Source: Blasia pusilla
Lineage: Eukaryota
DNA: 64,000 nucleotides
Assembly: GCA_050084515.1 (NCBI GenBank)
Contig: CM114271.1
Coordinates: 22,692,001-22,756,000 of the forward strand
Direction of reading: 5' to 3'
Each line of letters starts with the position of its first letter. Position 1 is the first letter of the stretch. Below, one piece after another: positions 680 through 64,000 of this stretch. Under the pieces are notes generated by a model that was not told the DNA's origin, ran no database searches, and saw nothing but the letters and a program-made list of their open reading frames with translations. Position numbers and translations under genes: made by a program.

Positions 680-3600
680 ATGGAATATTCCTCAATAGCA
701 ATCACATGCGCGAAGCTAGACAAGCAGAATTACAATGTCTGGAAGTTTCGCATGAAACAATTTTTCATGGATCAAGAACTATGGGAGCTTGTTACAGGTG
801 ATGAGGCCAAGCCACAAGGTGACTCAACAGACTTCAATGTTCGCGCTTGGAACAAACGCACAAGGCAAGTAATCCACTATATTTCAATAACGATCAGTTC
901 ATCAATGATAGTTCACATCCAAGATATTGATATTCCGAAGGAGACGTGGGATGTTTTGGAAAAGCTATTCCAAATATCTACAAAGGCCATAAAGCTTCAA
1001 TTGAAACAGCAATTGAATGAAGTGAGGAAAGGATCGTAGAGCATCAATGATTATATTTTGAGTATCAAACATATTATTCATCAGTTGAATAACATTGGAG
1101 TGACAGCAGAAGATGATGATCTGATCTTATTCACTCTTCAAGGCCTTCCAAAGGATTACAAGTCCTTTGAGACCTCTATCTCTGTGAGAGAGAAGTATCC
1201 AACCTTTCAAGAGTTAGTTCCTCTGTTGATCAATGCAGAGATGCGTCTAGTAGGTAGCGGTAACTCGTCTAGTCTGCAAGAGAATGCGCTATTTGCAGGT
1301 TATGGATCAAACAGAGGCAAGGGTCGTGGCAAAAACTTCCGTGGTCGTGGTGGATATCAAGCATAAGGAGGAAGAGGCACTCAATATAACGTCACTCAAT
1401 CGACTACGAACCAGTACCAGACACAATCACATGGTGATGATGTGGGAAACCGTTGGGATCGAGGTCAGCAGCAGAGGGTTCTTGGATCTTGCAATTATTA
1501 TGGGATAAAGGGTCACTATGCAAAGTTCTGCTTCAAGAAGAAGGTAGATATGAGAATAGGAGCCTTATAGCAACAACACCAAGAGCAGTACCAAGAACAA
1601 CAACATTCACAAACGGAGCATCTCTTGGTCATGACTCATCATATTGGAGCAATGTTCAAGAAAGACTCGACAACAGATTGGTATATTGACTCCGGTGCAT
1701 CAAATCACATGACCTCATAAGCAAAATGATTTAGTAGTTTGGAGCCGGTGAAAGATCTTGCAATTGTGCTCACATGAGATGACACTCAACATCATATCAC
1801 GCATACCGGTAAAGTTCCAATAACATCATATGGTCTTTGTGCTCTTGGAAATGTTCTCTATGTTCCTACCATTGCAAGAAATCTAATATGTATATGAAAG
1901 ATAGAAGAACAGGGTTATCAAGTGAAGTTTAACGCATATAGTTGTTTCATTGAAATAATGGATGACCAGACTACGATAGCCAAAGGAACTAGATATGGCA
2001 GACTGTTCAAATTAGATGTTTCTATGCCAAAGATTCAAACATCAATTTATGGTCAAACCGGCCAACAAGTCACAGATCTAAATGTGTGGCATAAAAGAAT
2101 TGGACATATGAATCTTCAAAGATTATAGAGTCTTTCATCATCTAATATAGTAATAGGACTCCCTAAATTAGCGAGTCCTGCTACGTTAGAGGTATGTCCT
2201 GCTTGCCAATTTGGAAAACAAGCTAGGTTTCCTTTTCCAAAGCAAGGTAGAAGAGCATCCAAGATATTGGAGTTGATCCAAAATGATGTGTGGACAGCAT
2301 CACAAGAGAGCCTTAGTGGTTGCCAGTACTTTGTTTCATTTATTGATGAATTCTCTAGGTATATATGGATATACTTTTTGAAAGCCAAGTCAGAGGTATT
2401 CTCGGTGTTCCAAATATTCAGAGTTCTAGTAGAGAAGCAGACTGGACAACACATTCTGAAATTGCGTCGTGATGGAGGAGGAGAGTATCTTTCAACAGAG
2501 TTTGATGACTATTTACGTCAGAATGGCATCCAACGTCAAGTGACTTGCCGCTACACTCCACAACAAAATGGAGTGGCTGAGAGGAAAAATTGACATATTG
2601 CTGAAGCGGCACGAGCTATGTTGAATGAGAAGAACATGCCTAAGGTGTATTGGGCAGAGGCTGTAGCATGTGCAGTCTTCTTAATCAACCGAACTCCAAC
2701 AGCGCGAGTTCATGATAAAACTCCATTCGAAGTCTTCACAGGAAGTAAACCTGATTTTTCCTTCTTGAAATTATTTGGCTGTATCTATTATGCTCATGTT
2801 CCTTCTGAAAGACGTAAAAAATTAGACCCCAAGTCTGAAAGATGTATCTTCATTGGCTATGATGATGGAACTAAGGGATATAAGTGCTACATTCCATCCT
2901 CTAGGCAGCTTATTATTAGTCGGGATATTGTCTTTGATGAGCTAAAGTCATGGTATGCTCCATTTGAGCCTATTCCACCTCTAAACTTGTCTGTTGAGGG
3001 GGAGCATATGACTATAAACCAACAGACATTGTCTTCAACTTCCCTAAGTACTAGTGCAAGATTAGAAGAAGTCCTAGATTCATCCATTAAATCTGTGAGT
3101 CTATGGACGGGAAGAGTGCATATTCAGTCTGTTAACACTAGTCAGAGCTCGAGTCAGGTCTCAGAGGCATCTACCTCTGAACAACAACTTCGTAGATCAA
3201 GTAGAGTTACACATCCAGTTCATAGATTCATAAATGAAGGTTTCCTTGCGACACATCATGCATATATGATGACTACCCTTCAAGAGCAGGAGCCGAGTTA
3301 TTTTGAAGAAGCTGCGAGTAAAGCCGAATGGATTGAAGCTATGGAGGAAGAGCTTGCAGCATTAAGACATCAACAAACATGGGAGTTGGTTGATATATCT
3401 TCCGGTAATGAAGCTATTGGTTGCAAATGGGTTTACAAAATCAAGTGCAATCAAGATGGTACAATTAACAGATTCAAAGCGAGATTGGTGGCTAAGGGCT
3501 ATGCACAATAATATGGTATCAATCATGAGGAAACATTTAGCCCTGTTGCAAAGATGGCGACTACGAGAACAGTGGTTGCAGTTGTAGTAAGTAAGAAGTG

Positions 3601-4830
3601 GAGATTACATCACATGGACGTCAAGAATGCCTTCTTGAATGGAGATCTATACGAGGAGGTGTATATGACTCAACCACTTGGATACCACCATCCCAAGTTT
3701 CCATTTCACGTATGCAGGTTGAAGAAAGCTCTATACGGGCTCAAACAAGCTCCAAGAGCTTGGTATGGCAAGATTACATACGTCTTACAAGAGTTGGGTT
3801 TTAGGGTATGTGATTCTGACTCCTCGTTATATGTCGTAAGAGGACAATATCATATAGTTCTCATTGTGTTGTATGTTGACAATCTCTTGATTACTGGGAG
3901 TACTGAAGAAATGGTACAACAAGTCAAGCTTAAGTTACAAGCAGAATTTGATATGAAGGACTTGAGAGAACTCAAGTACTTCCTTGGTATTGAGTTTATC
4001 AAAGTTGGAGAGAGTATGTGGTCACTACAACGACAATATGCTCTTCATATACTTTCAAAATATGGTATGACGGCTTGTAAGCCAATCTCTACACCGTTTG
4101 ACCATAGCGTGAAGCTAAGAGTGGATGAAGGAGAGCTGCTTGCAGATTCTAATATCTACTTGCGCATGGTTGGAAGTTTGATCTATCTAACTATAACCAG
4201 ATCAGATTTGAGCTATGTTGTTGGCCTAGTGAGCCAGTTTATGCAAGCACCTCGAAAACCTCACCTTGATGTTGTGAGGAGGATTATGCGGTATGTGAAA
4301 TTCTCTATTCAATTCGGGCTTCAATTTGAACATTCTCCAAGTTTTCAATTACAAGGATTCACAGATGATGATTGGGCATGAAGCGTTTCTGATCGACACT
4401 CCACATCTGCTTATTCATTTACTTTCGGAAGCGCAACTATAATTTGGGCTTCAAAGAAGCAACCTACAGTTGCTTTATCTTTAACAGAGGCTGAGTACAG
4501 AGGAGCAACCAATGCAGCATGTGAGGCGGTGTGGCTTCATCAATTACTTGTTGAGATTGGTGTTAGTAATTTAGGACCTAGTGTAATATATGCAAAAAAT
4601 ATTAGTAGCATCAAGCTTGCTAATAACTATGCGTTTCATGCTCGTACAAAGCATGTTAAGGTGCACTATCATTTTATCAGAAGAAAGTGCTTGCAGGAGA
4701 AATTGATCTTGTATATATAGGTTCAGATCAGCAAATTGCTCACATCTTTACAAAGGAATTGTCTAGATATAAGTTTGAGATGTTTAGAAAGGATTTACGC
4801 GTTAGAGATATCGATATGAGCTTGAGGGGG
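680..4830 (+). pseudogene. Copia gag-pol polyprotein with premature stops and frameshifts
   Basis: Gag (NYNVWKFRMK), decayed zinc knuckle, protease WYIDSGASNHM (~1680), GAG-pre-integrase WHKRIGH, integrase FIDEFSR...TPQQNGVAERKN, RT KARLVAKG...DVKNAFLNG...LYVDN, RNase H remnant. Stops at 1037, 1364, 2126, 2591, 3509 and 4379. Confidence 0.95.
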
Positions 4831-45512: not shown

Positions 45513-48500
45513 TGTCGTAGGAAATGAATGATGTACAAGGTAGGGTGGTAATAGTGGCATTACTCTATCTCCATTCTTCTAAGAGGAGACTTAGCTTGTA
45601 TGGCTTTAGAGACCGAGACCCATCCCACAATGGCATGAAGGTTATTATGTGAGAAAACAAAAAGTGATGAAATCAGTCAAAACTTTACAAAACTTGGAGG
45701 TACAAAGTGGCCTAGTCCGTCCATGCGCTCAAAAAAGAGCTTTGATGGAACCGAAAATGGAGATAACTTGACATACGAGAATGTGCTATTGCTGCGGCTC
45801 CCGACTATTTCACTACTCGGGAAATTAGGGTTTTTTACCTATTTTTCTAAGTTTCCATTAATAGAATTTTTTTTCACTATCCACACCCTCTATTGCATCA
45901 GGGTGCCCCGCACCCTGATGCAATATAGGGTTAGATAATCCTAGTAACGCTACTCCATAAACCACCTAGGTCATATTACTATGACTCCTTCGAAGTCCAA
46001 GTCGGAACCATCAATCTAGGCTTGTCCTCATACAAGGGGGCCGATCAGATTAATGATGCTCAGAGAAGTGGATGTTGAGAATCCAACATCCCCCTCAATA
46101 TCCACTCTCATGTGGACTATTGTCTTGGACCAATGCCAAGACCCTTCAGATGTCGGTGAAGCTAATCTCTGCTCAAAGCTTTCGTGAAGATGTCACCACG
46201 GTTATCCTCTATCGGAAAATAGACTAACTTCAAAAGCTCTCTCTTGATCAACTCACAAAGAAAATGAAACTGGATCTCTATGTGTTTCGTACGAGCATGA
46301 AACACATGATTATGTGCTATGGAAATGCAACTTTGATTGTCACACCACATTACAGTAGCACTTTCTGGTGCTTTTCCTATGTCCATCTCAATCATACTGC
46401 TTCACAAAAAGCATAACAAGCCGCCTTGTACTCTGCCTTGGTAGAAGAAAGAGCCACCGTAGGTTGCTTCTTTCTAACCCATGACACCATACCTGATCTT
46501 GCCAAGAAGCAATAACCCGAAACTCATCTCCGAGAATCTGAATCTCCTACATAATCCGAGTCACAAAAGGCTATCATTTCCGTCCTTGCTCCATAGGTGA
46601 TGCCGTACTTGATAGTGCCTTTGATGTACTTCAACACATGTATCCCTGCCTTCCAATGGTTCTCACAAGGCTTAATTGAGAACCTACTCAACACTCCCAC
46701 AGCGAAGCTCATGTCTGGTCTAGTGTTGCACAAAAATATCAAACTGCCTACAAGCTTTCTGTACAACTTTTCATCTACCAATGGTGAAACATCCTCCATT
46801 GAGAGTTTCAACTCTACCTCCATTGACGAGACCACTACCTTACACTCGATCATTCCGAACGCTTTCAAGACTTCTCTAGCATACTTTTGCTGAGAGAGAA
46901 AAACATAATCTAATTGTTGCCAAATTTCTAGCCCTATAAAGTAGTGCAAAAGACCTAAATCTGACTTTTCAAACTCAGATTTCAACACTCCCTTTATTTC
47001 CTCTATTTTCTTACTGTGACCTCCTGTGATGATCAGATCATCCACATACAGGATTATCAATATTAACATCCCATCTTTGCAAAACACATACGAATTTGCT
47101 TCTTACGGACTCTTGATGAGACCCTTCTCTCGGAAGAATGTATCTATTCGTTGATACCATACCCTTGGGGCTTGCTTCAACCCATACAATGCTCGATGAA
47201 GCAAACACACTTTCTCTTCTGATCTGGGCGTCTCAAAACTTGGTGGTTGAGATACATACACCTCCTCCTTGAGACTCCCGTTCAAAAAGGCAGACTTCAC
47301 ATCATATTGGTATACATGCCAACGTCTTGTTCCTGCCACGGCTAGAACAATTCGAATGGTTGTCATCCTTGCAGTAGGAGCAAAAGTCTCATAGTAGTCA
47401 AAACCTTCAATATGTGGACATCCTTGTGCAACCAACCTTGTTTTGAATTTATCCAATGTACCGTCCGACTTGTACTTGGTCTTGTACACCGACTTGGTGC
47501 GTATTATCTTCTTGTCCTTTGGCTTCTCAACCAAAGTCCAAGTTTCATTTCTTTGAATAACATCCATCTCCATATGCATGGCCTCTCTCCATTGAGGATG
47601 AGAAAGGGCCTCATCCAAGCATGATGGCTCTTCCACCTTCAAGACCTCTGTCATCAAGGCGATGTTGACAAGATGTGCGAAAGCTCTATTCTCCTCCTCT
47701 AGTCTCTTAGATCTCCTTGGATGTGTAATAACTTCATTAATTGGTGGTAGATCCTAACCATCCTAGAGCTACTTTATCCACTTAGGATATAACGACCGTA
47801 ATGGAAGAGCATGTTCATCTTTGTAATCATCACCAAATTCTTCTTCTTGATGATTTGGTGTAAACATTGGTGGTGTGCTCTGATGGGTTGTCTCTTCGTT
47901 TGATGATAATGTGGACGGACCACTGATATCTGCCACTTGACGAGATTGTTCCTGGAATACCACATCACGACTCACAAGCATCTTCTTTGCCTCAGGAGAC
48001 CATAGGCGATAAGCTTTAGACTCATCACTATATCCCATAAAGATGCACTTCCTGCTCTTGGACTCTAACTTGGTCCTGGATGGTTCAGGAATATGTACAA
48101 AGCATTCACTACCAAAAGTCCTGAAATGTTGGAGTGATGGTACCTTACGTGAGTATGATTGATGAGGAGTCATGCCTTGCATTAACTTGGTAGCACTTCT
48201 ATTTAGAATGTAAACGACAGTATTAACAGCTTCAGCCCAAAATCCTTTTGTCAAACCTTTTGCTTTCATCATACATCTTGCCATCTCCATCACTGTACGG
48301 TTTTGACGCTCAACAATTCCATTTTGTTGTGGTGTATATGCTGTGGTTAACTGTTGCTTGATTCCATGCTCTCCCAAATATTTGTTGAATTTTGTTGATA
48401 AGAATCCTCCTCCTCCATGACTGCGAAGCTTCTGTACCTTCTTTCCTGTCTCATTCTCAACCAACTTGTGCCATACTTTAAATTTTCCAAAAGCACTTGC

Positions 48501-49240
48501 CTTATCATGAAGGAAATATACCCACATCTTCCTACTATAATCGTCGTCAACTAAAAAGAAGTAGGAAGAACCACCTAATGCCACTGTTCTCATTTTACCA
48601 CAGAGGTCAGCATGAATCAGCTCTAGAGGAGCCTTTGCTCTTTTGCTAGACTCTTGTGGAAATGGTTTTCGGTGTTGCTTGCCAATCATACAAGCTTCAC
48701 ATGTATCCGACACTTCATAAATTATTGGTAAATCACCAACCATGCTAGATTTCTGCATCTGACTTAGTAAGGGAAAGCTTAAGTGGCCAAATCTTTCATG
48801 CCACAACTTACTGCTACTAAGATCTGTACCTACATTTGTCGTGAAAGCATATAACTCGTAGATATTTCCATGTCGTATACCTTCACCCACTACTTTCCCA
48901 TTGACATCCTCAATAAGAGCTCCAGTTTTCTTGAAACAAACTTCTAAGTCATGATCATATAATACTGGTACTGAAAATCAAATTTTGCTTCAACTCTAGT
49001 ACGTACAATACATTTGTTAACTTATTTTCATCTCCTTTTTGTGTGACTAAAGAAATTGTGCCTTTTCCTTCTACATGGCACTTTGCATTATTCCCAACCG
49101 TAACAACGATGGGCTTTTATGGAGGCTGTAAGGAGCTATACCAATCCTTATGATTAGTCATATGCTTAGATGCTCCACTATTGAGCACTCATGCATCTTC
49201 ACTCTTTGACTTAGTGGAATGTTTTGCTCGTGTGCAAAAC
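45513..49240 (-). mobile_element. Ty1/Copia element, second family, 5'-truncated (PR-INT-RT-RH plus 3' LTR)
   Basis: Minus strand: *VLNSGASKHMT (~49170), LWHERFGH, LELIHADLCG, DDYSRKMW, TPQQNGIVERQNRT, KTRLVAQG, DVKSAFLNG, LYVDD, CDNQS...HARTKHIEI. PPT GAGGGGGA precedes LTR start TGTTGG at 46088. The distal LTR end (~45513) is uncertain, and no gag or 5' LTR was found. Confidence 0.9.
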
Positions 49241-51795: not shown

Positions 51796-51895
51796 GACCT
51801 ATGCTAGTCTCATTGTCTTCTCAAGACCTGAGGGAGTTTCACTGTCGTAGTGGGAGAGTACTCGCGGGAGGAGAGAAAGAGGAGGAGACGCAGTC

Positions 51896-53353
51896 ATGAA
51901 GGTCTTGTTCTTTGCAGCCGTGTGGCTGTGCGCCGCGATACTCAGTCACGAAGTATTATTCGCAGCTGCTCAGACCCCGAAGTTGGTGTTCGCTCACTAC
52001 CTCATCTATGCGCAAGATTCGATCGACACTTACAAGCAGGAAATTCAGCTTGCCCAAAGCAAGGGTATCGATGCATTCGCACTCAACACGAACGTGTGGA
52101 GACAGTCGCTGGCAGACAATATGTATGAGGCTGCCAGCGAGCTGGGCACCGGATTCAAGCTGTTCTTCTCGGCTGATATTCACGTGGAGGATAGCACGGG
52201 TCTTAGGCTTTCGCCAACTGATATCGTGACCATGCTTACGAGGTACAGAACGCACCCGAATCAGCTGACTTACCAAGGCAAGTCGTTCTTCACTTCGTGG
52301 CTCGGCAATGACAATGGCTACTGGCAGTACTACAACTACGCGAGCGCAGTTGCGGCTTGGCAAGATATTTTCAACCAAGCCGGTGGCAAGAGCCTGTACT
52401 TCTTCATTCCATTCTTCCCCACCGACGGATCCTACTACGGAGTGAAGGGCATCGTGTATGATACGTTTCAGTCCACCGTCGATGGATACTTTGGATGGGA
52501 CAGCACTGCATGGAACTACTTGAACGGTAATTTTAGCGTTCCTGGGATCTCGCCCGGGGATCAGGACTCTCTTCAAGTCTCCAAAGACTTGGGTAAGACT
52601 TATATGGCCGGTGTCAGTCCGTGGTTCTTCAAGAACCTTGGAGGCCAATCTTGCTGCGATTCCTCTTGCTTCGCAACGACCAGGGACGGCCAGAGTGCAT
52701 GTCCGTGCCAAGTGAAGGGGGACTACCAAGGCTCTGGCCTGTGGCTCCAGAAATGGGGTCAAATAATTAGCAACCCTCCCCCGTTGGTGGAGATTATCAC
52801 CTGGAATGACTGGATCGAGGGCCACTACGTCGCACCGGGGTATAGCGTGGGCGCTAGCCAGGCTTCCTCCAGTGGCGCGATAGTCGATGTTGCCAGTTTC
52901 CCTCATCAGGCATTCCTGGAGCTGGGCAAGTACTATATCGATTGGTACAAGAATGGTCAGGAGCCAATCGTGTCCCAGGATTGCTTGTTCCTATTCTACT
53001 ACCCACAGAGCCATAACGTCACGATCAGTAGCGTGCCTTGCGACATACTGCATCGCCCGCAGTTGGTCGATGATGCCGTTTATGCAGCGGTAATTCTCTC
53101 TCCGGGCCCTTCGGCCTCAATTACAATCAACACAGGTGGGCCTGGTGGCACGTCTCAGACCTTCACAGCCGTGCAGGGTGTCTCGGTGTTCGGCATCGGA
53201 TTTCAGGAAGGTGTTCAGTCCGTAACATATAGCCGAAACTCGCAGACTGTGACGCTTACAGGCGCAAAACTAGTCAGTAATACCGCCCTCACTGAATACG
53301 ACTTCAACGTTTACTCCACCTTCTGCTCTAATGTCGCTAATGGGTGCAGCTAG
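51896..53353 (+). CDS. Secreted glycoside hydrolase family 71 (alpha-1,3-glucanase/mutanase-like), 485 aa, intronless
   Basis: Signal-peptide-like N-terminus ending AAA-Q. GH71 motifs: VFAHY, EIQLAQSKGIDAFALN, FKLFFSAD, FFIPFF, VDGYFGWD, KTYMAGVSPWFF, VEIITWNDWIEGHY, YYIDWYKNG. C-terminal beta-rich domain ends YDFNVY. Confidence 0.92.
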   Translation: MKVLFFAAVWLCAAILSHEVLFAAAQTPKLVFAHYLIYAQDSIDTYKQEIQLAQSKGIDAFALNTNVWRQSLADNMYEAASELGTGFKLFFSADIHVEDSTGLRLSPTDIVTMLTRYRTHPNQLTYQGKSFFTSWLGNDNGYWQYYNYASAVAAWQDIFNQAGGKSLYFFIPFFPTDGSYYGVKGIVYDTFQSTVDGYFGWDSTAWNYLNGNFSVPGISPGDQDSLQVSKDLGKTYMAGVSPWFFKNLGGQSCCDSSCFATTRDGQSACPCQVKGDYQGSGLWLQKWGQIISNPPPLVEIITWNDWIEGHYVAPGYSVGASQASSSGAIVDVASFPHQAFLELGKYYIDWYKNGQEPIVSQDCLFLFYYPQSHNVTISSVPCDILHRPQLVDDAVYAAVILSPGPSASITINTGGPGGTSQTFTAVQGVSVFGIGFQEGVQSVTYSRNSQTVTLTGAKLVSNTALTEYDFNVYSTFCSNVANGCS

Positions 53354-55860
53354 TTATCTATGTCAGTCCACATTCTGCTCCAATTACTAAGGAGCGCTGA
53401 AATAATACCCGACTCGCGCGCAGACGCTTGGGTTTTAAGATAATCGATTCTGTTTAGCTTGCTTATCCAAAAATAAAACTTAGACGTCACTGACGAATAG
53501 TGTGAGCTTTCGCGAATAAACTCAGATGATCTGAGTCAATTTGGTTGAATACAATCCCTACTTCTCACTACACCGAGATTGTGGCTGTTCTCATTTCCGA
53601 TTCTCTACTCTGGAATTTTGCGTCGAATGTAACAGAGCCAATTCTCATCTCTCCCTCAGTTACACGTACATCGCGGACCCGGCAGTTGTTCGAATCACTT
53701 CGAAGTCATTCCATAGAACTATTCGACATGCGCATTGGACATTTTCACGGCGAACGTTCAAGTGTGTCCATATTCTTGAATAAGGATGACAAGGATTTCT
53801 ACGTTCTAATACAAATCTGCGAGTACCGAGCGCAAGTTAAAGCTTGGAATTATCAAGTCGTGGAATTCTAGTACGTAAGATATGTTTAGCAGTTTAGAAC
53901 GGATACCGGAAAGCCGATAGGAAGGTTGCAAGTACGCACGTACACTACATGAGCTCGATAATCGAAGGGTTCGGTCTTTTGGATTCATCTGATTTTTCAT
54001 CACTGGTGCAGCAAGCAGCAAGCCACTTCTAGCGACCTCCGACCTGGCCTCCAAATGCATGGCATCGGCTGATTCTCAGGGATATTCAGTTCAACTTCCT
54101 CTTATATACATGACATTGCCCTACTCTGGACTCTGGAGAAGTAGGTCGAATTGACTTGGGGAAGCTGGGACTTGTATAGCGTACACGGCGTACGGTAATC
54201 CAGTAGCTCTCCAAAAGCTTGTTTTTCAGGGCTCCTTTCCCATGCATGCACGTCTTACCGTTCATAAATCGCATAATCGCAGGCCAGAGCGTGAAGGATT
54301 CGAATGATCTGACGATGTTCCCCGATCTTGACCATCCCCCCCATCGCAATTACCTCGTGCTGAAGGCGAGGTTGCCTCACCCTCCGACCTTGAATTCAAA
54401 CGCCATGAAGAAGGCATGAATCTTCATAAATCGGGACCGTTCCTCAATATCCCGAGACTGCCGCGTTCGTTCGGCTAATTCCTGGGCAGGTTGATCCTCC
54501 AGTGAAAGATTGAAACCTTGTGCCCAATGCATACTGTGCACCTGACGCATTGCAAGGGCCTTCTCATATTACGCGTTGCCAAGCTCCAGGCGGGTCAACG
54601 TTGCACATGAGATACAACGTGCAGTTGCGTGCTCAATTGCCTCGAAGAGTTTACCTAGTCTAAATCAGGGAAACAGCCACCTGAATCATTCAAGTTCTGA
54701 ATGAGGACAGCGGACACGACTAACAGTGACCACCTCCTCATTGGCTCTTGTAGTTTACAGAGTTTCAACCATGGAGAAATCAACTCAACCACAGGCTCAG
54801 GCGCAACAAGACAAGAATTACTGCTACGTACACCCTTCCATTGATTCCCGGAGGTGCGCGATCGTGACAACATTGAGCCATGCGAAGATAAGTTGACTTT
54901 CGGCCCATCTTTAGATATCGTTTCATGAATTCAAACAATTTGGAATCCGATTGCATGGTTTAACACGAGGGAAACCGACACAGACCCGTCCGTAGACGCG
55001 ATACGATGGAACTGGATACCACTAGGATCGGTGTTGGTGATCTCCAATCGTTTGAATTTCGTGAAACAACATCTAAATCTTTTCGGGCAACGTTGAGTAG
55101 GGTCGAAGGTTGAGTCGATTCCAACCATGGCTCGTCATGATCGCGCACCTCCGGGAATCCGTGGATGGGCCTCATCTACGATCTGCAGTCCCGACATTTC
55201 ATGTCGTTTTAGATGGCAGGATTCGTGTACGAGCCCCGTGACTACTGGAAGTCTGGACACGGAGAGGACAAACAACACGAGAGTGGGAAAAGAACCAGAC
55301 GGGACCGAAGGCCCTAAACTGCCACGGGACTGCTCACTGGGGCAGCGGGATAAATGCCCCATATCTGCGCACGAAGCCCATACTTTGCCGCGGCTTCGCA
55401 ATAAAGCGAAGCCTAGGCTAGGCCCTATCGGCAGGCGCCTCGGTGAAGGCGCGCTTCGGAGCCCCGGATCGGGAAAACGGTGGGGGGCGGTGGCTGGCGG
55501 ATATCGGCTGGGCCGACGCCAGCGACCTAGGCGGACGGCTTCACCAACTCCGTGAAACATGGGACGGATTTAGGGACGGGTTTAGGCGGACGGATCTAGG
55601 GTAACGACGGACTACGACGGAATGTAGGGACGGATTTAGGCGGACGGAATTAGGGTGGGGACGGGTGTTTAGGGCGCTCTGTTGTGTTTCGCTGATGGTG
55701 GCAGTGTTTTGCGAAGGTTTTGCGTTTAGGGTGGTTTCCGAAGGTTTTGCGAAGGTTTTGCGTTTAGGGTGGCGCTCCGAAGTGTCGTTCGATGTGTGTT
55801 CGGTGTACTCGCACTTGGTTTACAGCGTTGGGCTTTTGCCTGATCGGGTTTAGGGTGTTC

Positions 55861-57130
55861 AGCGATTCGGGGTTGGGCTCTTGTGTTCGTGTGTAGAGAT
55901 TTACAGTGTTGAGCGATTCGGGGTTGGGCTCTTGCAGGATCTTGCCCTCGTGAAAGGTGTTTCGGGTGTTGAAGGCGCTCAGAGTGTTTCGCTGATGGTG
56001 GCGGTGTTTTGCGGCTCTAGGTGTTTCGCCGTGTTAGGTGTGTAGAGGTTTCTGATGTTCAGCGATTCGGGGTTGGGCTCTTGCAGGATCTTGCTCGTGA
56101 AAGGTGTTTCCGGGTGTTGAGGGGCGCTCGGAGTGTTTCACGATTGTGATGGCGGAGCTCGGTGGTTTGCCCTCGCGAAGTTCCATTCTTCCGAGGCCTT
56201 GAGTGGTTTCTTGTTTTGCATTGTCTACTGCGATTGCACGCACGAGTATGTACCGTGAAATTTGTGTCGCCATGTGTGTACTTGAAGTATTCGTGTGTTT
56301 TGTTTTCGATTCCTCATTGTTGCCGCCCTCCCCTTCGCATTCTCACGCCGTTCAACTTGATCTGCGATTGCAATGGCGAGCTCGGTGGTTTTGCGCCTCG
56401 CGAGGTTCCATTCTTCTAAGGCCTTGAGTGGTTATTTTTTTCATTGTCTACGCAAAGTGCACGATGAGTATGTACCGTATTATTTGTGTCGCCATGTGTG
56501 TACTTGAAGTATTCGAGTGTTTTGTTTCTTGATTCCTCATTGTTGCCGCCCTCCCTTCGCATTCTCACGCCAGTTCAACTTGATATGATGGATTGTGCTC
56601 TCGTGAAAGGTGTTTCGTTTACAGTGGCAGTGTTCCGCAATTCGGGAAAACGGTGCTTCCGGGTGTTTAGCGATGTGTTGTGGGTGTGGGCTTGATGGTT
56701 GCGGTGTTTAGCGATTCGGTGTTTAGGTATTGGTCTTCATTCGATTCTTGTAGGGCTTTTGGTGGATCGTGCTCTCGTGCGAACAAACAAACAGTTCGCT
56801 AGTGGGTTTAGGGTTTAGAATTGGAAACTAGCTCAAATTTTCTGGTGATCGGTTTGGTTTGGTTTAGTTAGGCCCAGTGGCAGTGCGGTCGTAGCCTGAG
56901 AGAGGAAGAAGGTAAGTTTGGGCTCCGAAGTGTCTCGCTTCGTGTTTGAAGGTGGCAGTGTTGTGGGTGTGGACTTGACGGTGGTGGCGGTGTTTAGGTG
57001 TTGGGTTTGATTGTCGTAGGGCTTTTGTTGGATCGCTTTGCGGTGTTATCGTGCACTCTTGGGAAAAGGGGTCAATTCGCTAGTGGGTTTAGGGTTAGAA
57101 TTGAAACTAGCTCGAATTGTCTCAGATCGG
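55861..57130 (+). repeat. Subterminal tandem duplications inside the MULE left arm
   Basis: AGCGATTCGGGGTTGGGCTCTTG at 55861, 55912 and 56061. A ~225-bp duplication spans ~56155-56375 and ~56378-56585. The blocks at ~56680-56860 and ~56960-57130 are also related. Confidence 0.85.
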
Positions 57131-57847
57131 TTTGGCGCCGCAACAAAGGCGGGTGAAACATGAAGTCACTTAACGGTGAGAACTGAGTTGTGTGGACGCG
57201 AGAGTAACAAGGTAAGTTTGATTCATTGTGTATCGTGACCGAGCTGGGTTTCTGTTTAAAATTTTCCGGGTTGGGTTATGGCATTTGTGTCTGCATTTGT
57301 TTATTGTTGACAGTCAGGATTTGAAGGTGGCAGCGCACTTTTTGGCAAAGTCGTGAACTAAAATTGGAACACCCATACTTTGCGGTGCCGACTGTGCGTG
57401 AGTTGATCCGACTTGATGGGGCAGGGAGGAGAGCGGAGTCAATGTGGGATCGGAGTAAATGGGATATCGTGACTTATAGTAATTTCATTCGGGGTCCTTG
57501 ATGTCTAGTTCCATCTAGTGACGCTCCATTCCTGCGTGACGATTCTCCTCGTGATCAGGTACATTAGTTGTATGTTTGGATTCCTTTCTATTGGTTATTG
57601 CTTCATTGCAAAGAATTACAAAGTAAACAAGGTTACTGACATGCTTTTTATGACCACATCACGCAGGTTCGGGCTAGCGTACGAATTGTGTAACTCCTAC
57701 CGAATTTCCATCCTCGGAGCTCTTAGGTTCTGAAAGCGAAGGAGCTCTTAGGTTCTGAATGCGAACTTGACCTTTCGGTCGGTAGTAGAGTAGGTTGGAT
57801 ATAGGGGTTTACATACATTACGGGTACTACTGTCGCCTGTTGTTATC

Positions 57848-58600
57848 ATGCCCGACATCCCCATTGCAAAGTTCTTAGATGCCTGTAGGCTACGTGAGCT
57901 TATAATCACTGTGAAAGAGCCCGAAAATGTTACACGTTTCCTTTCTGGAAATCAGGGGTCGAGTGAAACATGGGTGAGCCCCATGATTCATAGTAGCTTC
58001 ACTAGTGACTTTTTCCTCTCAAACATTGTCTGCAAGCGTTCACATCCGCTATCCAAAAATTACTTGGATGATTGGATCATCCTGGGATTTCCCCTAGAAA
58101 CGTACGAGTGTTTAGAGCAAGCTGCTAGGCATGCGGGCTACAAGGTAGCTTTGTCTCCGAAAGCACGCTTGGCGGGTGGGCACGTATGGTTTGACTCCTA
58201 CTTCCAGAAAAATGGCTTGACCAATTTTAAAGTAGTGGGACATGAGGGAGGTAAGATGAAGGTGCATACCATTCCATACATCAAAAGTATGATGGAGGCA
58301 TCAAATCAGAATTTGATAACAAAGATTGTATGCACCATCCGATTAAAAAGGAGATTATCCACCATAGAGGATATAGAAAAGAATGACCTTATCCCTTGGG
58401 TAATCGGTGTTACCCCTAAAAGCATATACCTTATTGACCAAACTGACGTGGATGACAATCTATCTGTTGAGAAGGACCAAATTCCAGATCTGTTTGTGCA
58501 AAGTATGAGCTCCTTTGCCATTCTAAGCTTAGCTCGGGGTAAGTGCTCTGCACTGATTAAGATTTATCCTATCTTGAGAAGCAAAGATTTGTGGGAGTAG
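57848..58600 (+). CDS. Intact 250-aa accessory ORF inside the MULE, function unknown
   Basis: Uninterrupted 753-nt ATG-TAG frame with globular-protein composition. Upstream are candidate 5'-UTR splice sites (AAG/GTAAGT at ~56911 and ~57211, CAG/GTAC at ~57558, acceptors at ~57313 and ~57667). It converges on the transposase. Confidence 0.7.
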   Translation: MPDIPIAKFLDACRLRELIITVKEPENVTRFLSGNQGSSETWVSPMIHSSFTSDFFLSNIVCKRSHPLSKNYLDDWIILGFPLETYECLEQAARHAGYKVALSPKARLAGGHVWFDSYFQKNGLTNFKVVGHEGGKMKVHTIPYIKSMMEASNQNLITKIVCTIRLKRRLSTIEDIEKNDLIPWVIGVTPKSIYLIDQTDVDDNLSVEKDQIPDLFVQSMSSFAILSLARGKCSALIKIYPILRSKDLWE

Positions 58601-58824
58601 TTTGGAGGAACCGATATCCCTGCCCTTCTTTTCTTTTGTGCGGTAGTGGCCAATCTTCTAGATCATAGGCACCATAGCTTATCACTTCATAGTGATAAAC
58701 ACAATCTTTGTTGCTATTGTGAAATTTTGTACGGGTGGTTTTTAATGTTTACGATATCCCTTTTTTGTCCTTCATCGGACTATGGTCCGGATGTAGTATC
58801 GGGTGTAGCTAGTTTATATACACG

Positions 58825-58825
<1 letters not shown>

Positions 58826-58872
<47 letters not shown>
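58826..58872. repeat. (TA)n microsatellite between the 3' ends of the two MULE genes
   Basis: About 23 TA units. Confidence 0.95.
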
Positions 58873-58875
<3 letters not shown>

Positions 58876-59099
58876 TTTCTATATGTATAGTTATAGTAGA
58901 GCCCGCTAAGAGAGGGTTTAGGTTTCTTAGGCAGCAAATTTGTATGGGTGTGTAGGCGGATGCCTGCATTTACTAGAATCGGGCTTATTTGGTAGGTGGG
59001 CAAAATCACATCGAAGGTGGATAGCATTTTAGTATCAATCTTCAGAGGAATATAGTTGCCCACTAGGAGAAGTGCTATGGGTTTGAAGTTAAATCCCAA

Positions 59100-61618
59100 C
59101 AGAGCAACTTGTTAGGTCCTGGGGGATGCTCTAGAATGCCATGTGAACTCTGCAGCTTATATTTGAATGCAGCTCATGTGCGACTTTTCTTGAATGCCAA
59201 CGTAACAATTCATTGCTTACATTGTTGGTTATGTTCATACATAGGCAAAATTCTACAAGGGAGAGGTGGAGAAAGAGCAGGTTGCTCTTGAGTTTAGGAA
59301 GATGTTTGCTGCATTCATGGGCAAGAGCCCACCCTTTCCTGAGAAGCAAGCCTACCAAACCTCGCTATGGCGGGCAAGTACTGTCCACCTCTAGTAAATT
59401 TAGAAACAAACATCCTCCATATCACAATTCCTGACATCCTATGCAAGAGTCCCTAGATGCGGTGTGGAATTCAGCGATCCATTTACCTATTCACGTGCAT
59501 GCTGCATCTTTTGAATCATAGTCCACCACATCATGCCATACATATGGCTTTGAGATGCTCTTCACCTGAGCACATTTCCTTGCGTTCATGGACTCGAATG
59601 TGACATAGTTGTCAGGAATATCATTTGCTCGCCTAATAGCCATTAGCATGACTTTTTGAATAGCTTGATTCCTCACCATGCCTTCCCTCTTCAAAAAGGA
59701 CAAGTACCAGAAGAAATCTTCAATTTCTCCAGTGAGTATTTGCACAAGCCATATAAGCTTCTGGTTGGCTTAGTGGGCATCTTTGGATGTGAGGTGCATC
59801 TTTAGAGTGTGATGCCACCTTTCTATGGCAGCGTTAGTATCTTGGTTGGATCGTGCATGCTTGCGATATCCTTTAGCCCAAGTAACGATCTTTGGATGCC
59901 AATAGTTGGCGTAGTATTTTAGAAAGTGACGTTCCGTTCCTATCCACTTGCGCATAAATCTATAAGAGGCATCAACCGGATCTGCGACACCAATAGCTAA
60001 TTGTTACGCATCTGGACCATAACAACATACAAGATACAAAAATTTGAAGGTTACAGATTGGAAGTACCTTCATCACTTGAATACATAACTCCGCCCAGGT
60101 CTCTATTCATGTTTGCCTTTGTGATTGGACATCGCAAACGCTGATGCAAATTCTTTAGCCAATTCTTTCAAACATACCATAGACACAGGTCTATAGGAAC
60201 ACCAGGAAATACTTCCTTTATAGCAGATTGTTCCTCTTTTGAGTCATCAACTATGAAGCATGAAGGTTTCCACTCTGTCGTGCATATGTTTTGGTCCTTT
60301 TTCAACATGTTCCTATTTGCCCAATCCTTAACATGCGATAAGGTAGCAACCAAGTCCTTGTGTTGATGTCGTTGTAGGATAGCCTTGACCAATGGCAACC
60401 CATTAAGAAACTTATCGAACCCCAACAAAGTGAATAATTGGTACTGTGAACACAAGAATTGCATGATTCAGAACTGTGAATATAAAGATTTTGACGCATG
60501 AATGGGAAGAAATATATCATTATTGTAGAGGGAAACAAAGCATAAGCACTTGCTAAGTGAAGGTCTACATCTGAAAGATTGGGCAACAAGCTAAAACAAA
60601 TTATTATTCGAAACAATATCTGATCTAAAAAAAGCAAGTGAAGAAGCAATGTCAACTAACCTCATAAGTGTTTGTGCCATGGGTGGCATCCATTGAGATA
60701 GCTCCGCCATTTCCAAGTTCCAAGAGATTTTGAAGCATCCAAGGTGTCGAAAATACTAGGGTAAAGGGTTGGCCCAACTTGGAAATAGCCTCATTGTAGT
60801 AGATGATATTTTCGGGGTGTGATTGTACCCAATGTTGGATTGCAAAGTGGCGTCGTCCGTTCCATCATAGCCCCCTTTCGCCTTCGCATGCAAAGTGCTT
60901 GATATTGAGAATATCTTGAGGCTTTAGCATTGCATCTCTAGCCCAAGCATGTTGGTGGTTGGGGTTATCACGAATATGTTCACGAACCCACCTCCTATGC
61001 TCTTTCATGATATTCAAAGGGCTCACGTTCACTGCAATAAGCGCTCAACAAAGTCCCTACAACAAGGACTTAATTTTGGGGCTACAATTGCATTTGCAAT
61101 ATTTCTTTGTCTTGTCTAGGTCACCATGGCATATTTGACCCGCCTTGTCCACATGTTTAGAGTGCAAGTGCCTCAACATGCAAAAACCAGGGACGGTCTA
61201 TCGACTTTTTATGACAAAGTGGAATTGGCATCCACGGCCTTGAGAAAGCCCAAGATTTTTACTTTGGCTTTCTGGTCTACTACCCTTACCCCACATTAGC
61301 CCGACGGTTGGGGTGAAAGACCTCTTCGGCAAAGAGGTCTAGACATCTTTCCTGAAATCTTGGGCCCCCATCGCACACCAATACCGAATGGTGATATTTG
61401 TGTGTGCAGATTTATCATTTTGCTTTTTGAAAAGTAAATGCCTGGAAATGCGGTCTATGTTCTTCACCTTGTATGAAATCCTCTAGCCTATCAGCTGGAA
61501 TCCATGCTTCTTTTCTTTGACCATACCAATTCAGGTGTTCACTTATAAAAGGGCCAGGTAGGGGATTTTGAATGGAGTCACATTCAAATGCACCATAGGA
61601 CTTGGAGTATTTGGTCAT
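59100..61618 (-). pseudogene. MULE DDE transposase (plant SWIM-zinc-finger/MULE type), intron-containing, inactivated
   Basis: IQNPLPG...AWIPADRLEDFIQGE, RGCQFHFVIK, KHVDKAGQICHG, ISMDATHGTNTYE, then a GT-AG intron at 60660-60444, then YQLFTLLGFD...GLPLV, CFIVDD, LCLWYV*, QDTNAAIERWHHTLK. D-D-E are present, but there are stops, frameshifts and CxxH changed to CxxY. The 3' end is approximate. Confidence 0.88.
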
Positions 61619-62063
61619 TCCTGCTGGGAAGTTTCTTGGGAAGCTTCAATGAATAACTACCCTAAACCTTCGATCACCTTCCCACATCCAAATTATATTC
61701 CTGTGTTCAGACGATGCACATGTACAGAGAAATTCTTCGAAATATAAGTGCTATTACCGGAGACAATCAATACAAGTTTCCTCCAACAGAGGTCATACTA
61801 TCCTTTGTACATGTCAAAGTTTTGCTTCAAAATTATGCAATACATGACATTCAGACAACGGAAACGATAGTGGGAATGATGAAGATCCCTAAACGCCCGT
61901 TGCCTCGGGTTCACGAGGGTTCAATTCGTATTACGTTTATGCAAGCCGCCAAGGGAACGAAGGGAAGGAGGAGCAAAGGAGTTATCTATGTAGTCCACAC
62001 CTACTACTATGAATCATTGGAGCCGAACTGAACCGAAATAATCAAATACAAACTTCTGCACGA

Positions 62064-62325
62064 ATCCGAACCCCCGAACACTTAATCCACGTACCACACC
62101 TCTCGTTCGGGTTAATCCTCTATCGTGAAGCGATCATAATCCTCCATTAGCAACCAAATCCTCCAATCCGAACCCCGAACACTTAATCCCTCCACACCTC
62201 TCGTTCGGGTTAATCCTCTATCGTGAAGCGATCATAATCCTCCATTAGCAACAAATCCTCCAATCGAACCCGAACACTTAATCCACGTACCACACCTCTC
62301 GTTCGGGTTAATCCTCCATTAGCGA
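62064..62325. repeat. ~100-bp tandem repeat (about 2.6 copies) in the MULE right arm, upstream of the transposase
   Basis: AATCCGAACCCCGAACACTTAATCC...CACACCTCTCGTTCGGGTTAATCCTC at ~62064, ~62165 and ~62262. Confidence 0.9.
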
Positions 62326-63227
62326 TTGTAATTCTCCATTAGCGATGATAATGAAGCAAATGTCGGGTTTCTCTGTTGCTCCACGACGTTCATTACGGCT
62401 AATCGACTGACGTTTAGGGCTAATCCACTTTTGCCGGATGGAATCCATTTTAACTCCGTCCGATGGCAGGGAACGGACGTTTTGAAGTCCGTTCCCTAAA
62501 GTCCGTCCCATGTTTCACGGAGTTGGTGAAGCCGTCCGCCTAGGTCGCTGGCGTCGGCCCAGCCGATATCCGCCAGCCAGCCACCGTTTTCCCGATCAAC
62601 AGCGCGCCTTCACCGAGGCGCCTGCAGATAGGGCCTAGCCTAGGCTTCGCTTTATTGCGAAGCCGCGGCAAAGCATGGGCTTCGGGGAGAGGGACCCCGG
62701 GCGGCGGGCCCCGGCACTCTAGGAACACCCAGAGTCTGGATCGAGATTGGTCCATGTACAGGGGTCTCTGTTTGTACATAAAGAGTTGAACTTTGCGTGT
62801 GTCCGAAACGAAAAGCTATAATCCAAATAGTCCCATGCCCCGTTGCCTCGTTCTTGTGCTGATCAGCACGTTCTTCTTACAGCCAAAAAGTAAGGAGTAG
62901 TACAGGAGTACTAGGGCGGTATCGAATCGGATCACAACGTGAATTGCGGATACCTTTGGTGACCATCTCCACAAAGTCCTCCGGACTTCCGAAAAAGGAG
63001 GCCAGGTTAATCGTACGGTGAGGAGATAGTAAAGACAGTAACCACCTCACTTGTCTAGGGACGCTACGCCCGTCGAACTTGCGAACACCCTCGACAGAAA
63101 TTCCGAATCGATCCAACATTTCAATCGACCCCGGAGTTTTATGCCCTGATTAAATTTCAGCATGCGATTCTACACACAAACTTACTTCTGAATTCCACAT
63201 GAGGAAGGCATTTGTTTGCCAAGCAGA

Positions 63228-63809
63228 TTACGGTATCCTGAAGCTGAATACGGTATCCTTCACTCCGAAGTAGGATCCATCGGTAGGGAAGAATGGAATG
63301 AAGAAGTACAAGCTCTTGCCACCGGCTTGGTTGAAAATGTCGTTCCAGGCCTCAAGTGAGCTTCTGTAATTGTAGAACTGCCAGTAGCCATCATCATTGC
63401 CGAGCCACGAGGTGAAGAATGACTTGCCTCGGTACGTGAGCTGATTCGGATGTGTTCTATACCTGGTCAGCATCGTTACGATCTCTGAAGGCGATAGTCG
63501 AAGACCCGTGCCATCCTCGACATGAATGTCGGCCGAGAAGAAAAGTTTGAAACCGGTGCCCAGCTCGCTCGCAGCCTGATAAATTTTATCTGCCAGCGTC
63601 TGTCTCCACACATTCGTGTTCAGTGCGAATGCGTCGATACCCTTGCTTTGGGCGAGCTGAATTTCCTGCTTGTAAGTATCGATTGAATCCTGCGCATAGA
63701 TGAGGTAGTGAGCGAACACCAACTTCGGGGTCTGAGCAGCTGCGAATGGCGCTACTGAGCTGAGAATTGCGGCACAAAGCCAAATGGATGAGGCGACGAA
63801 ACTCTCCAT
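63228..63809 (-). pseudogene. 3'-truncated GH71 paralog (193 aa), inverted relative to the intact copy
   Basis: Colinear with 51896.. for ~185 aa, with 16 substitutions in the mature part by my count. It then stops before the WNDxxE block, and no 3' half is visible downstream. Confidence 0.9.
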
Positions 63810-64000
63810 GACTGCTTCTCTTACTCTGCTTCTTCAGTTTCGCACAATGAGAGTTCCCAGGCTCCGTGCGCTATAAGCGTTCCTTAACCGGGTCCCACAC
63901 GCACGACAGAAGTTTCATAGGATACAGAAAGCCAACTTTATGCTTATACAGCAGACGCTTGTTGGAAGTAAACTTCGACTTCAACCGTAGTTAGTTCCGG

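Follow-up and report, generated by a model that had tools for sequence, protein, structure and literature searches.

A candidate accessory gene converging on the transposase gene of a Mutator-like element in the liverwort Blasia pusilla

A 250-codon open reading frame (ORF) inside a Mutator-like element (MULE) of the liverwort Blasia pusilla has, in our view, about an even chance of being a lineage-specific accessory gene of this MULE family. This candidate would resemble mudrB of maize and VANC of Arabidopsis in its layout and probably in its role, not in its sequence. The ORF lies in a stretch of 64,000 nt (contig CM114271.1, positions 22,692,001 to 22,756,000), which is called the window in the following and to which all positions refer. 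The family is multi-copy, and its ORF region is kept about as well as the transposase gene, is transcribed in sense from inside the element and is spliced at GT..AG borders. The window's copy is a decayed member of this family: its transposase gene is frameshifted, a target-site duplication (TSD) is missing and its alleles are unseen in RNA, while its ORF happens to be still open.

Besides the window, sequence data of the same species were evaluated, namely a genomic run (X12), two stranded RNA runs (X15 and X16) and contigs (X6), all mapped to positions 51800–63900. Reads at least 88% alike to the window were counted, and about 1% (X12), 6% (X15) and 12% (X16) of the raw reads were sampled. 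The element comprises the following features:

55372 to 55579, no strand: left terminal inverted repeat (TIR), 90.5% identical (with gaps) to 62489–62684 over 210 aligned nt in blastn; its edge is visible in the DNA reads
55580 to 57450, plus strand: G+T-rich subterminal non-coding region with degenerate direct repeats (D1–D20) and a GTGTTT array on one strand
57848 to 58600, plus strand: ORF of 250 amino acids, ATG at 57848 and stop at 58598–58600, candidate accessory gene without a known family
58543 to 58646, plus strand: intron of some ORF transcripts; 104 nt are skipped, which removes the last 19 codons and the stop
58826 to 58895, no strand: (TA)n microsatellite and AT-rich palindrome between both genes, where reads are cut (58813–58899)
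59134 to 61645, minus strand: decayed MULE transposase gene, six-frame pieces with in-frame stops, PF10551 and indels not divisible by three
60444 to 60660, minus strand: transposase intron, joint 60443>60661, CT..AC on the plus strand (GT..AG in the direction of the gene), supported by two reads of X15 and a contig of X6
62063 to 62343, no strand: 98-bp tandem repeats of the right subterminal region, from the repeat search (D3, D7, D13)
62489 to 62684, no strand: right TIR, from the repeat search and blastn against the left arm

The TIRs of approx. 208 bp enclose both the ORF and the transposase gene in a Mutator-like element of 7.3 kb (7313 bp), and an inverted-repeat search (I1/I2) found the arms to be 98–99% complementary. 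MULEs are recognized by a MULE (DDE) transposase domain, TIRs of about 100–500 bp and a TSD of 8–11 bp. The transposase domain, long TIRs and a multi-copy state were found here. A TSD was not found, which concerns the window's copy only: up to 6 nt from the two ends, the flanks contain no pair of 7–11 bp with at most two mismatches. The missing TSD may be due to decay or to recombination between copies. The transposase domain (PF10551, the MULE domain of Pfam) is encoded on the minus strand at 60168–60464, with an E-value of 1.7e-8 and 35.3 bits against a cut-off of 27.6. Since the ORF is on the plus strand, the two genes converge.

At the left border, 19 DNA reads from other copies carry sequence exactly before 55372 which is unlike the window and mutually different (agreement 0.43). 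This places the left end of a repeated element at 55372, and such disagreeing continuations are expected for copies in different places. The X12 depth, summed over both directions, is 26.8 and 15.3 in the ORF bins and 11.9–27.1 in the transposase bins, compared to approx. 0.7 in the left flank (mean of eight bins) and 0.7–1.05 in the right flank (three bins). Thus, the element is multi-copy, with a crude figure on the order of 15–40 copy-equivalents for the family; no second copy was found within the window. In the non-coding region 55840–57455, the depth is 4.4–6.5 in four of five bins and 11.8 in the fifth (overall about 4–12), and in the intergenic bin 58668–59071 it is 3.8. This pattern indicates that the ORF is retained among the copies like the transposase gene and better than the non-coding DNA. 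The repeat region 55580–57450 diverges among copies far more than the genes do. An Rfam scan of the whole window gave no match. Just beyond the left TIR, an inverted repeat pair of 36 nt was observed (54833–54868 and 55134–55169, 89% complementary, 265 nt apart), which may be a small foldback or a MITE-like remnant.

A first-pass annotation, made from the sequence letters alone, had reported an open frame of 250 amino acids on the plus strand at 57848–58600, and the ORF listing bears this out. It is the longest ATG-initiated ORF within the element. In 300 mononucleotide shuffles of the 7313 bp, the longest ORF had at most 181 amino acids (median 102) and thus never reached 250, so that an ORF of such length is not expected by chance. 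The same annotation described a layout like that of maize MuDR, with two genes facing each other from opposite TIRs. A second gene indeed converges on the transposase gene inside one MULE, and the RNA directions over the two genes are opposite. The ORF does not begin at a TIR, however, as its start is located 2.27 kb inward from the inner edge of the left one. The layout of an accessory gene is supported, now with expression evidence. Since this second gene has the DNA depth of the transposase gene, is transcribed in sense and is spliced, it is real at the level of the family.

The transposase gene had been described as carrying stops and frameshifts, which holds for the most part. Its reading on the minus strand is distributed over pieces in all three frames, and a comparison of the window with DNA reads of other copies revealed indels of lengths not divisible by three at seven places, in 41–92% of the reads per place:

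59760, one C inserted, 11/27 reads of other copies
60844, two nt deleted, 13/20 reads
60892, two nt deleted, 9/13 reads
61033, one C inserted, 15/35 reads
61105, one nt deleted, 10/16 reads
61417, one T inserted, 12/13 reads
61428, one C inserted, 11/12 reads

Two 2-nt differences coincide with the switches of the window's transposase frame between 60937 and 60759. One apparent frameshift turned out to be the intron at 60444–60660, which joins a piece with a DATHGTN-type motif to the piece with the Pfam MULE match. The other transposase pieces matched no Pfam family, including SWIM or DNA-binding domains, and a 99-aa piece had no match among longer proteins in a weak word-indexed search. That the ORF stays open beside the broken transposase gene could be luck in one copy, for which a rough estimate from indel and stop rates gives P of about 0.03.

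Two further observations concern the transposase side of the element. First, variants in the number of the 98-bp repeats were found in reads (joints 62064>62163 and 62160>62334). The latter joint occurs in minus-strand RNA (10 reads of X16 and a contig of X6 with a depth of 21), so the transposase 5′ region is transcribed from copies with fewer 98-bp repeats. Second, 52–75 plus-strand RNA reads per run match only an island at 59302–59333; their left side is unlike the window, and their rightward continuation matches it approx. 6 nt further on at 88%. These reads come from another, more expressed locus. The island is part of an open frame of 49 amino acids on the plus strand (59245–59391), antisense to the 3′ end of the transposase gene, which matched no Pfam family.

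The strand convention of the RNA reads was fixed by a plus-strand GH71 gene left of the element: reads with the first mate on the minus strand (first_mate_on-) reach a depth of 118–220 (X15) and 90–153 (X16) over this gene, those of the other direction 1–9. Consequently, the RNA over the ORF is sense. In bin 57860–58263, it amounts to 64.6 (X15) and 69.5 (X16), with 1.09 and 0 in the opposite direction (first_mate_on+); in bin 58264–58667, it amounts to 28.4 and 46.3, with at most 1.09 in the opposite direction. RNA-seq had been suggested as a check on the annotated gene, and by it the region is expressed, in sense, in both X15 and X16. Over the transposase bins, the RNA depth is 0–5.3, all in the direction opposite to the ORF reads and hence in the transposase's own sense, and at least 20-fold weaker than over the ORF. 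Upstream of the ORF, sense RNA depth is 0–1.5 over 55032–57051, 2.6–2.7 at 57052–57455 and 13–16 at 57456–57859. This suggests that transcription of the ORF starts far inside the element, approx. 1.5–2 kb in from the left TIR, although the expressed copies differ from the window there.

The reads also show that some transcripts are spliced. The intron joints were placed at 58537>58642 in X15 (six reads with four starts) and at 58542>58647 in X16 (four reads with three starts); as placed in X16, the intron has GT..AG ends, and a pyrimidine run is located ahead of the AG. The ORF had been called intronless, which strictly does not hold, as ten RNA reads skip the 104 nt; the open 250-aa frame as such is present in the window. 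In the sequence of the window, the frame of the spliced form would end after 238 residues.

At three positions, almost every RNA read deviates from the window, i.e., at 58087 (41/41 in X15, 60/60 in X16), 58153 (65/65, 90/91) and 58277 (56/56, 81/82), as do 25/26, 17/17 and 19/23 DNA reads, respectively. The window's letter at 58087 is present in 0/41 and 0/60 RNA reads and in one of 26 DNA reads. The window's own copy appears to be silent, its alleles being unseen in RNA. At three other positions, the RNA allele is found in a smaller part of the DNA reads: 58009 (about 51/52 RNA reads in X15 and 40/40 in X16; 8/22 DNA reads), 58348 (34/34 and 86/86; 8/19) and 58566 (18/18 and 18/18; 3/14). 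Since these alleles make up 21–42% of the DNA reads, the transcripts come from a subfamily, about a fifth to two fifths of the copies, and not from a single-copy host gene.

This result bears on the possibility that the ORF is a captured piece of an ordinary host gene, in the style of a Pack-MULE, with part of the RNA stemming from the parent gene. The capture of host fragments by MULEs is a known phenomenon (e.g., PMC9168764), and Pack-MULEs have in common with the element studied here that internal sequence other than a transposase is transcribed. Further, the main expressed form is unlike the window before 57839, where 44 and 33 RNA reads depart from it, and after 58458 (19 reads, X15), beyond which the read sequence has no match anywhere in the window. 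On the other hand, the expressed alleles are found in 21–42% of a DNA depth of about 12–27, which corresponds to several copies. No relative was found in the plant proteomes searched (including Marchantia and Riccia), nor was a parent host gene in the protein libraries. The ORF equals the transposase gene in DNA depth and copy number, and transposase remnants are present, unlike in typical Pack-MULEs. Overall, we consider a captured host fragment rather improbable.

Judged by eye, the sequence before 57839 in these reads corresponds to the upstream part of the window in a diverged form, with an exact match of only 10 nt. The loose read ends at 58052, 59333 and 59907 can be aligned to the window at a distance of a few bases, corresponding to local divergence or small indels. 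The window's copy contains a 25-bp tandem duplication upstream of the ORF (57717–57766), which expressed copies do not have, judged by reads departing from the window after 57734 (14 and 22 reads). After 57992, 17–20 RNA reads per run continue with a sequence resembling the reverse complement of about 57940–57966, and the ORF has a weak opposite-strand self-match in 57933–57992; a small inversion or a hairpin may be present there in some of the expressed copies.

The coding capacity of the ORF was assessed using the differences between the window and the reads, of which 40 were examined, with 549 more beyond those. Among the 10 differences with the best support inside the ORF, there is no new stop codon. 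Four of them are synonymous and six are non-synonymous; compared to the 21% of synonymous changes expected, this does not depart significantly from neutrality (binomial P about 0.14). A deletion of one nt at 58499 is present in 3/10 DNA, 8/13 X15 and 3/8 X16 reads and closes the frame after 219 residues (window's letters). Roughly residues 1–217 are common to all forms of the ORF, and the C-terminus is unstable. Several ATGs exist upstream of the ORF in 57440–57847.

An alternative is that the region is transcribed and not protein-coding, e.g., as a promoter-proximal or regulatory RNA, and that the frame is open by chance or because the copy is recent. Such an RNA would agree with the upstream ATGs, the non-significant synonymous excess and the variable 3′ end, where the frameshifting deletion is found in 8 of 13 X15 RNA reads, as well as with the lack of a homolog, a Pfam family or a confident fold in the searches described below. 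It is less easily reconciled with the shuffles, with an ORF region kept among copies like the transposase gene and better than non-coding parts, and with differences that introduce no stop, even the deletion form still having 219 residues. We therefore judge a non-coding transcript to be somewhat unlikely. If the ORF is an accessory gene, its product would be an orphan protein specific to the lineage, with approx. residues 1–217 as a conserved core and with a variable C-terminal tail. This protein would be translated and would serve the element as an accessory factor like MURB or VANB/VANC.

Databases were searched for relatives of the 250-aa protein. No Pfam family was found at E ≤ 0.1 or even at E ≤ 10. 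A full phmmer pass over 1.84 billion protein representatives gave no match at E ≤ 0.001, and the same holds for all 203 candidates of a word-indexed search in 5.8 billion clusters (137–438 aa). Among PDB sequences, the best E-value was 0.68, and neither the viral contigs of IMG/VR nor the metagenome contigs of JGI contained a match. The top score in the ESM Atlas (0.84, arthropod ionotropic receptors) was rejected as noise, as shuffled proteins score in the same range. AlphaFold2 in single-sequence mode predicted a structure with a mean pLDDT of 31.9 and a pTM of 0.20, i.e., with no confidence. As no homolog was found, conservation outside the MULE family cannot be shown.

The library of 1.84 billion representatives draws on public genomes and metagenomes, and the related word-indexed collection holds many fungal proteins. 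Plant proteins including those of Marchantia and Riccia were among those searched; the host species' own proteins are absent, as no match near 100% identity was obtained for the GH71 protein. Transposon genes are often omitted from plant annotations. For both reasons, relatives in MULEs of other liverworts could be missed. Fungi and viruses are densely sampled, however, and fungal or viral relatives of the ORF are thus much less likely to have been missed.

This matters for the origin proposed in the first-pass annotation, which had likened a motif of the ORF to fungal hypothetical proteins with relatives in mycoviruses. According to this proposal, a plant transposon captured a fungal or mycoviral gene, such as a small ORF of a hypovirus similar to p20 of FgHV1, as a silencing suppressor. 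In its favor, p20 is reported as an RNA-silencing suppressor (PMC9693516), and there is the quoted motif. The motif, however, consists of the ORF's own residues and of nothing else. No fungal or viral homolog was found at E ≤ 0.001 in the protein and viral databases, with zero matches in the Pfam (E ≤ 10), phmmer (HMMER, 1.84 billion representatives), word-indexed and IMG/VR searches, so that the proposed resemblance is not supported. With p20, which is encoded by a Fusarium RNA mycovirus (PMC9693516), and with small hypovirus ORFs, the protein shares its size class, and a relation in sequence was not detectable; nothing found would tie p20 to the ORF. Within the reach of sequence searches, a fungal or viral origin is refuted, and we consider it extremely unlikely. 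Cross-kingdom or viral capture is not supported by these comparisons, and an anti-silencing role of the ORF product would be a guess.

With respect to layout, the element corresponds to MuDR and, less closely, to VANDALs. In maize MuDR, mudrA (encoding the MURA transposase) and mudrB (encoding MURB) are convergent. Like MuDR, the liverwort element is a MULE with approx. 200-bp TIRs and two genes, the second of which lacks known domains and is confined to a single MULE lineage. In decayed MuDR copies, too, the second gene often remains intact beside a broken transposase gene: PMC10401008 lists 12 Mu elements with a full-length mudrb-like gene in maize B73, one with mudra and none with both. MURB is described there as needed for insertion and as specific to the MuDR subfamily (PMC10401008). 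The two systems differ in their host, which is Zea in one case and a liverwort in the other, and apparently in transcription, as the promoters of MuDR are reported to be in the TIRs (PMC10401008), whereas sense RNA is seen here only from approx. 1.5–2 kb inside the left TIR. The 1.84-billion search detected no similarity of the ORF to any protein, and hence none to MURB, provided that MURB was included.

With VANDAL21/6 of Arabidopsis (VANA transposase, VANB and VANC), the liverwort element shares that it belongs to the MULE superfamily and carries accessory genes, and that a motif is arrayed on one strand. Here, GTGTTT occurs 17 times on the plus strand and never on the minus strand of 55580–57450, beside the ORF, compared to 2 and 1 times in 57451–61950. 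A further likeness is that non-coding parts diverge faster among copies than genes. VANB/VANC of VANDALs act in sequence-specific anti-silencing, with VANC causing a loss of DNA methylation, and VANDALs are said to lack long TIRs, in contrast to the approx. 208-bp TIRs of the element described here. VANC is reported to bind short motifs that form tandem repeats of uniform orientation in non-coding regions of the element, and to carry DUF1985 and DUF287 (PMC5735166). The ORF has neither domain (no Pfam family at E ≤ 10). VANC is further reported as dicot-specific and MAIN-like in fold (PMC13547354). Judged by sequence, membership of the ORF in the MURB or VANC accessory-protein family is not supported. 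The same source, as far as its text is accessible, describes accessory proteins of transposable elements as often lineage-specific and fast-evolving, with dN/dS above that of core enzymes (PMC13547354); thus, an orphan is what would be expected.

Concerning the function of the putative accessory protein, our preferred guess is that it would bind the oriented repeat arrays of its own element next to its gene and thereby promote expression or transposition of the element. A more specific version is that a VANC-like system evolved independently in liverwort MULEs, in which the protein would recognize the GTGTTT-rich array at 55580–57450 and shield cognate copies from silencing or activate them against it. 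The protein would then diverge between subfamilies together with the fast-evolving repeats, which would fit the expression of only one subfamily. What makes this idea attractive is that GTGTTT is densely arrayed on one strand and that the non-coding parts diverge quickly. Nevertheless, arrays on one strand are also known as ordinary transposase-binding subterminal repeats, and we give the VANC-like mechanism only a slim chance.

To our knowledge, accessory genes of DNA transposons are few (MURB, VANB/VANC and TnpA), all of them discovered in flowering plants, and they illustrate the ways in which an element controls its insertion or escapes silencing. In the accessible portions of the literature on Mutator-like elements in liverworts or Marchantia, no such accessory gene is described in a bryophyte. 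Should the orphan gene be translated and under selection, it would add an independent case from a land-plant lineage that diverged early and would be suited for functional tests; otherwise, the ORF would be an ordinary transcribed remnant.

The GH71 (alpha-1,3-glucanase) gene next to the element (51896–53353, plus strand) is intact, intronless and strongly expressed, and its protein has a signal-peptide-like start. A truncated inverted paralogue, covering residues 1–188 with 83.5% identity, is located on the other side of the MULE (63246–63809, minus strand). GH71 is usually regarded as fungal. Protein identity is 64% to Marchantia polymorpha, 64% to Riccia fluitans and 61% to M. paleacea, 39–52% to conifers, Selaginella and mosses, and 26–34% to named fungal and bacterial matches; judged by these values, the relatives form a land-plant group well apart from fungi and bacteria. 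The GH71 genes, together with ESM Atlas neighbours in Basidiomycota and Ascomycota, had at first pointed to a fungal host, which was rejected in view of these identities; they indicate a plant, most likely a liverwort that is not close to Marchantia. Elsewhere in the window, stop-interrupted pieces of Ty1/copia-type polyproteins are present at 2594–4381 (plus strand) and 46524–48977 (minus strand), in which integrase and reverse-transcriptase motifs were recognized by eye.
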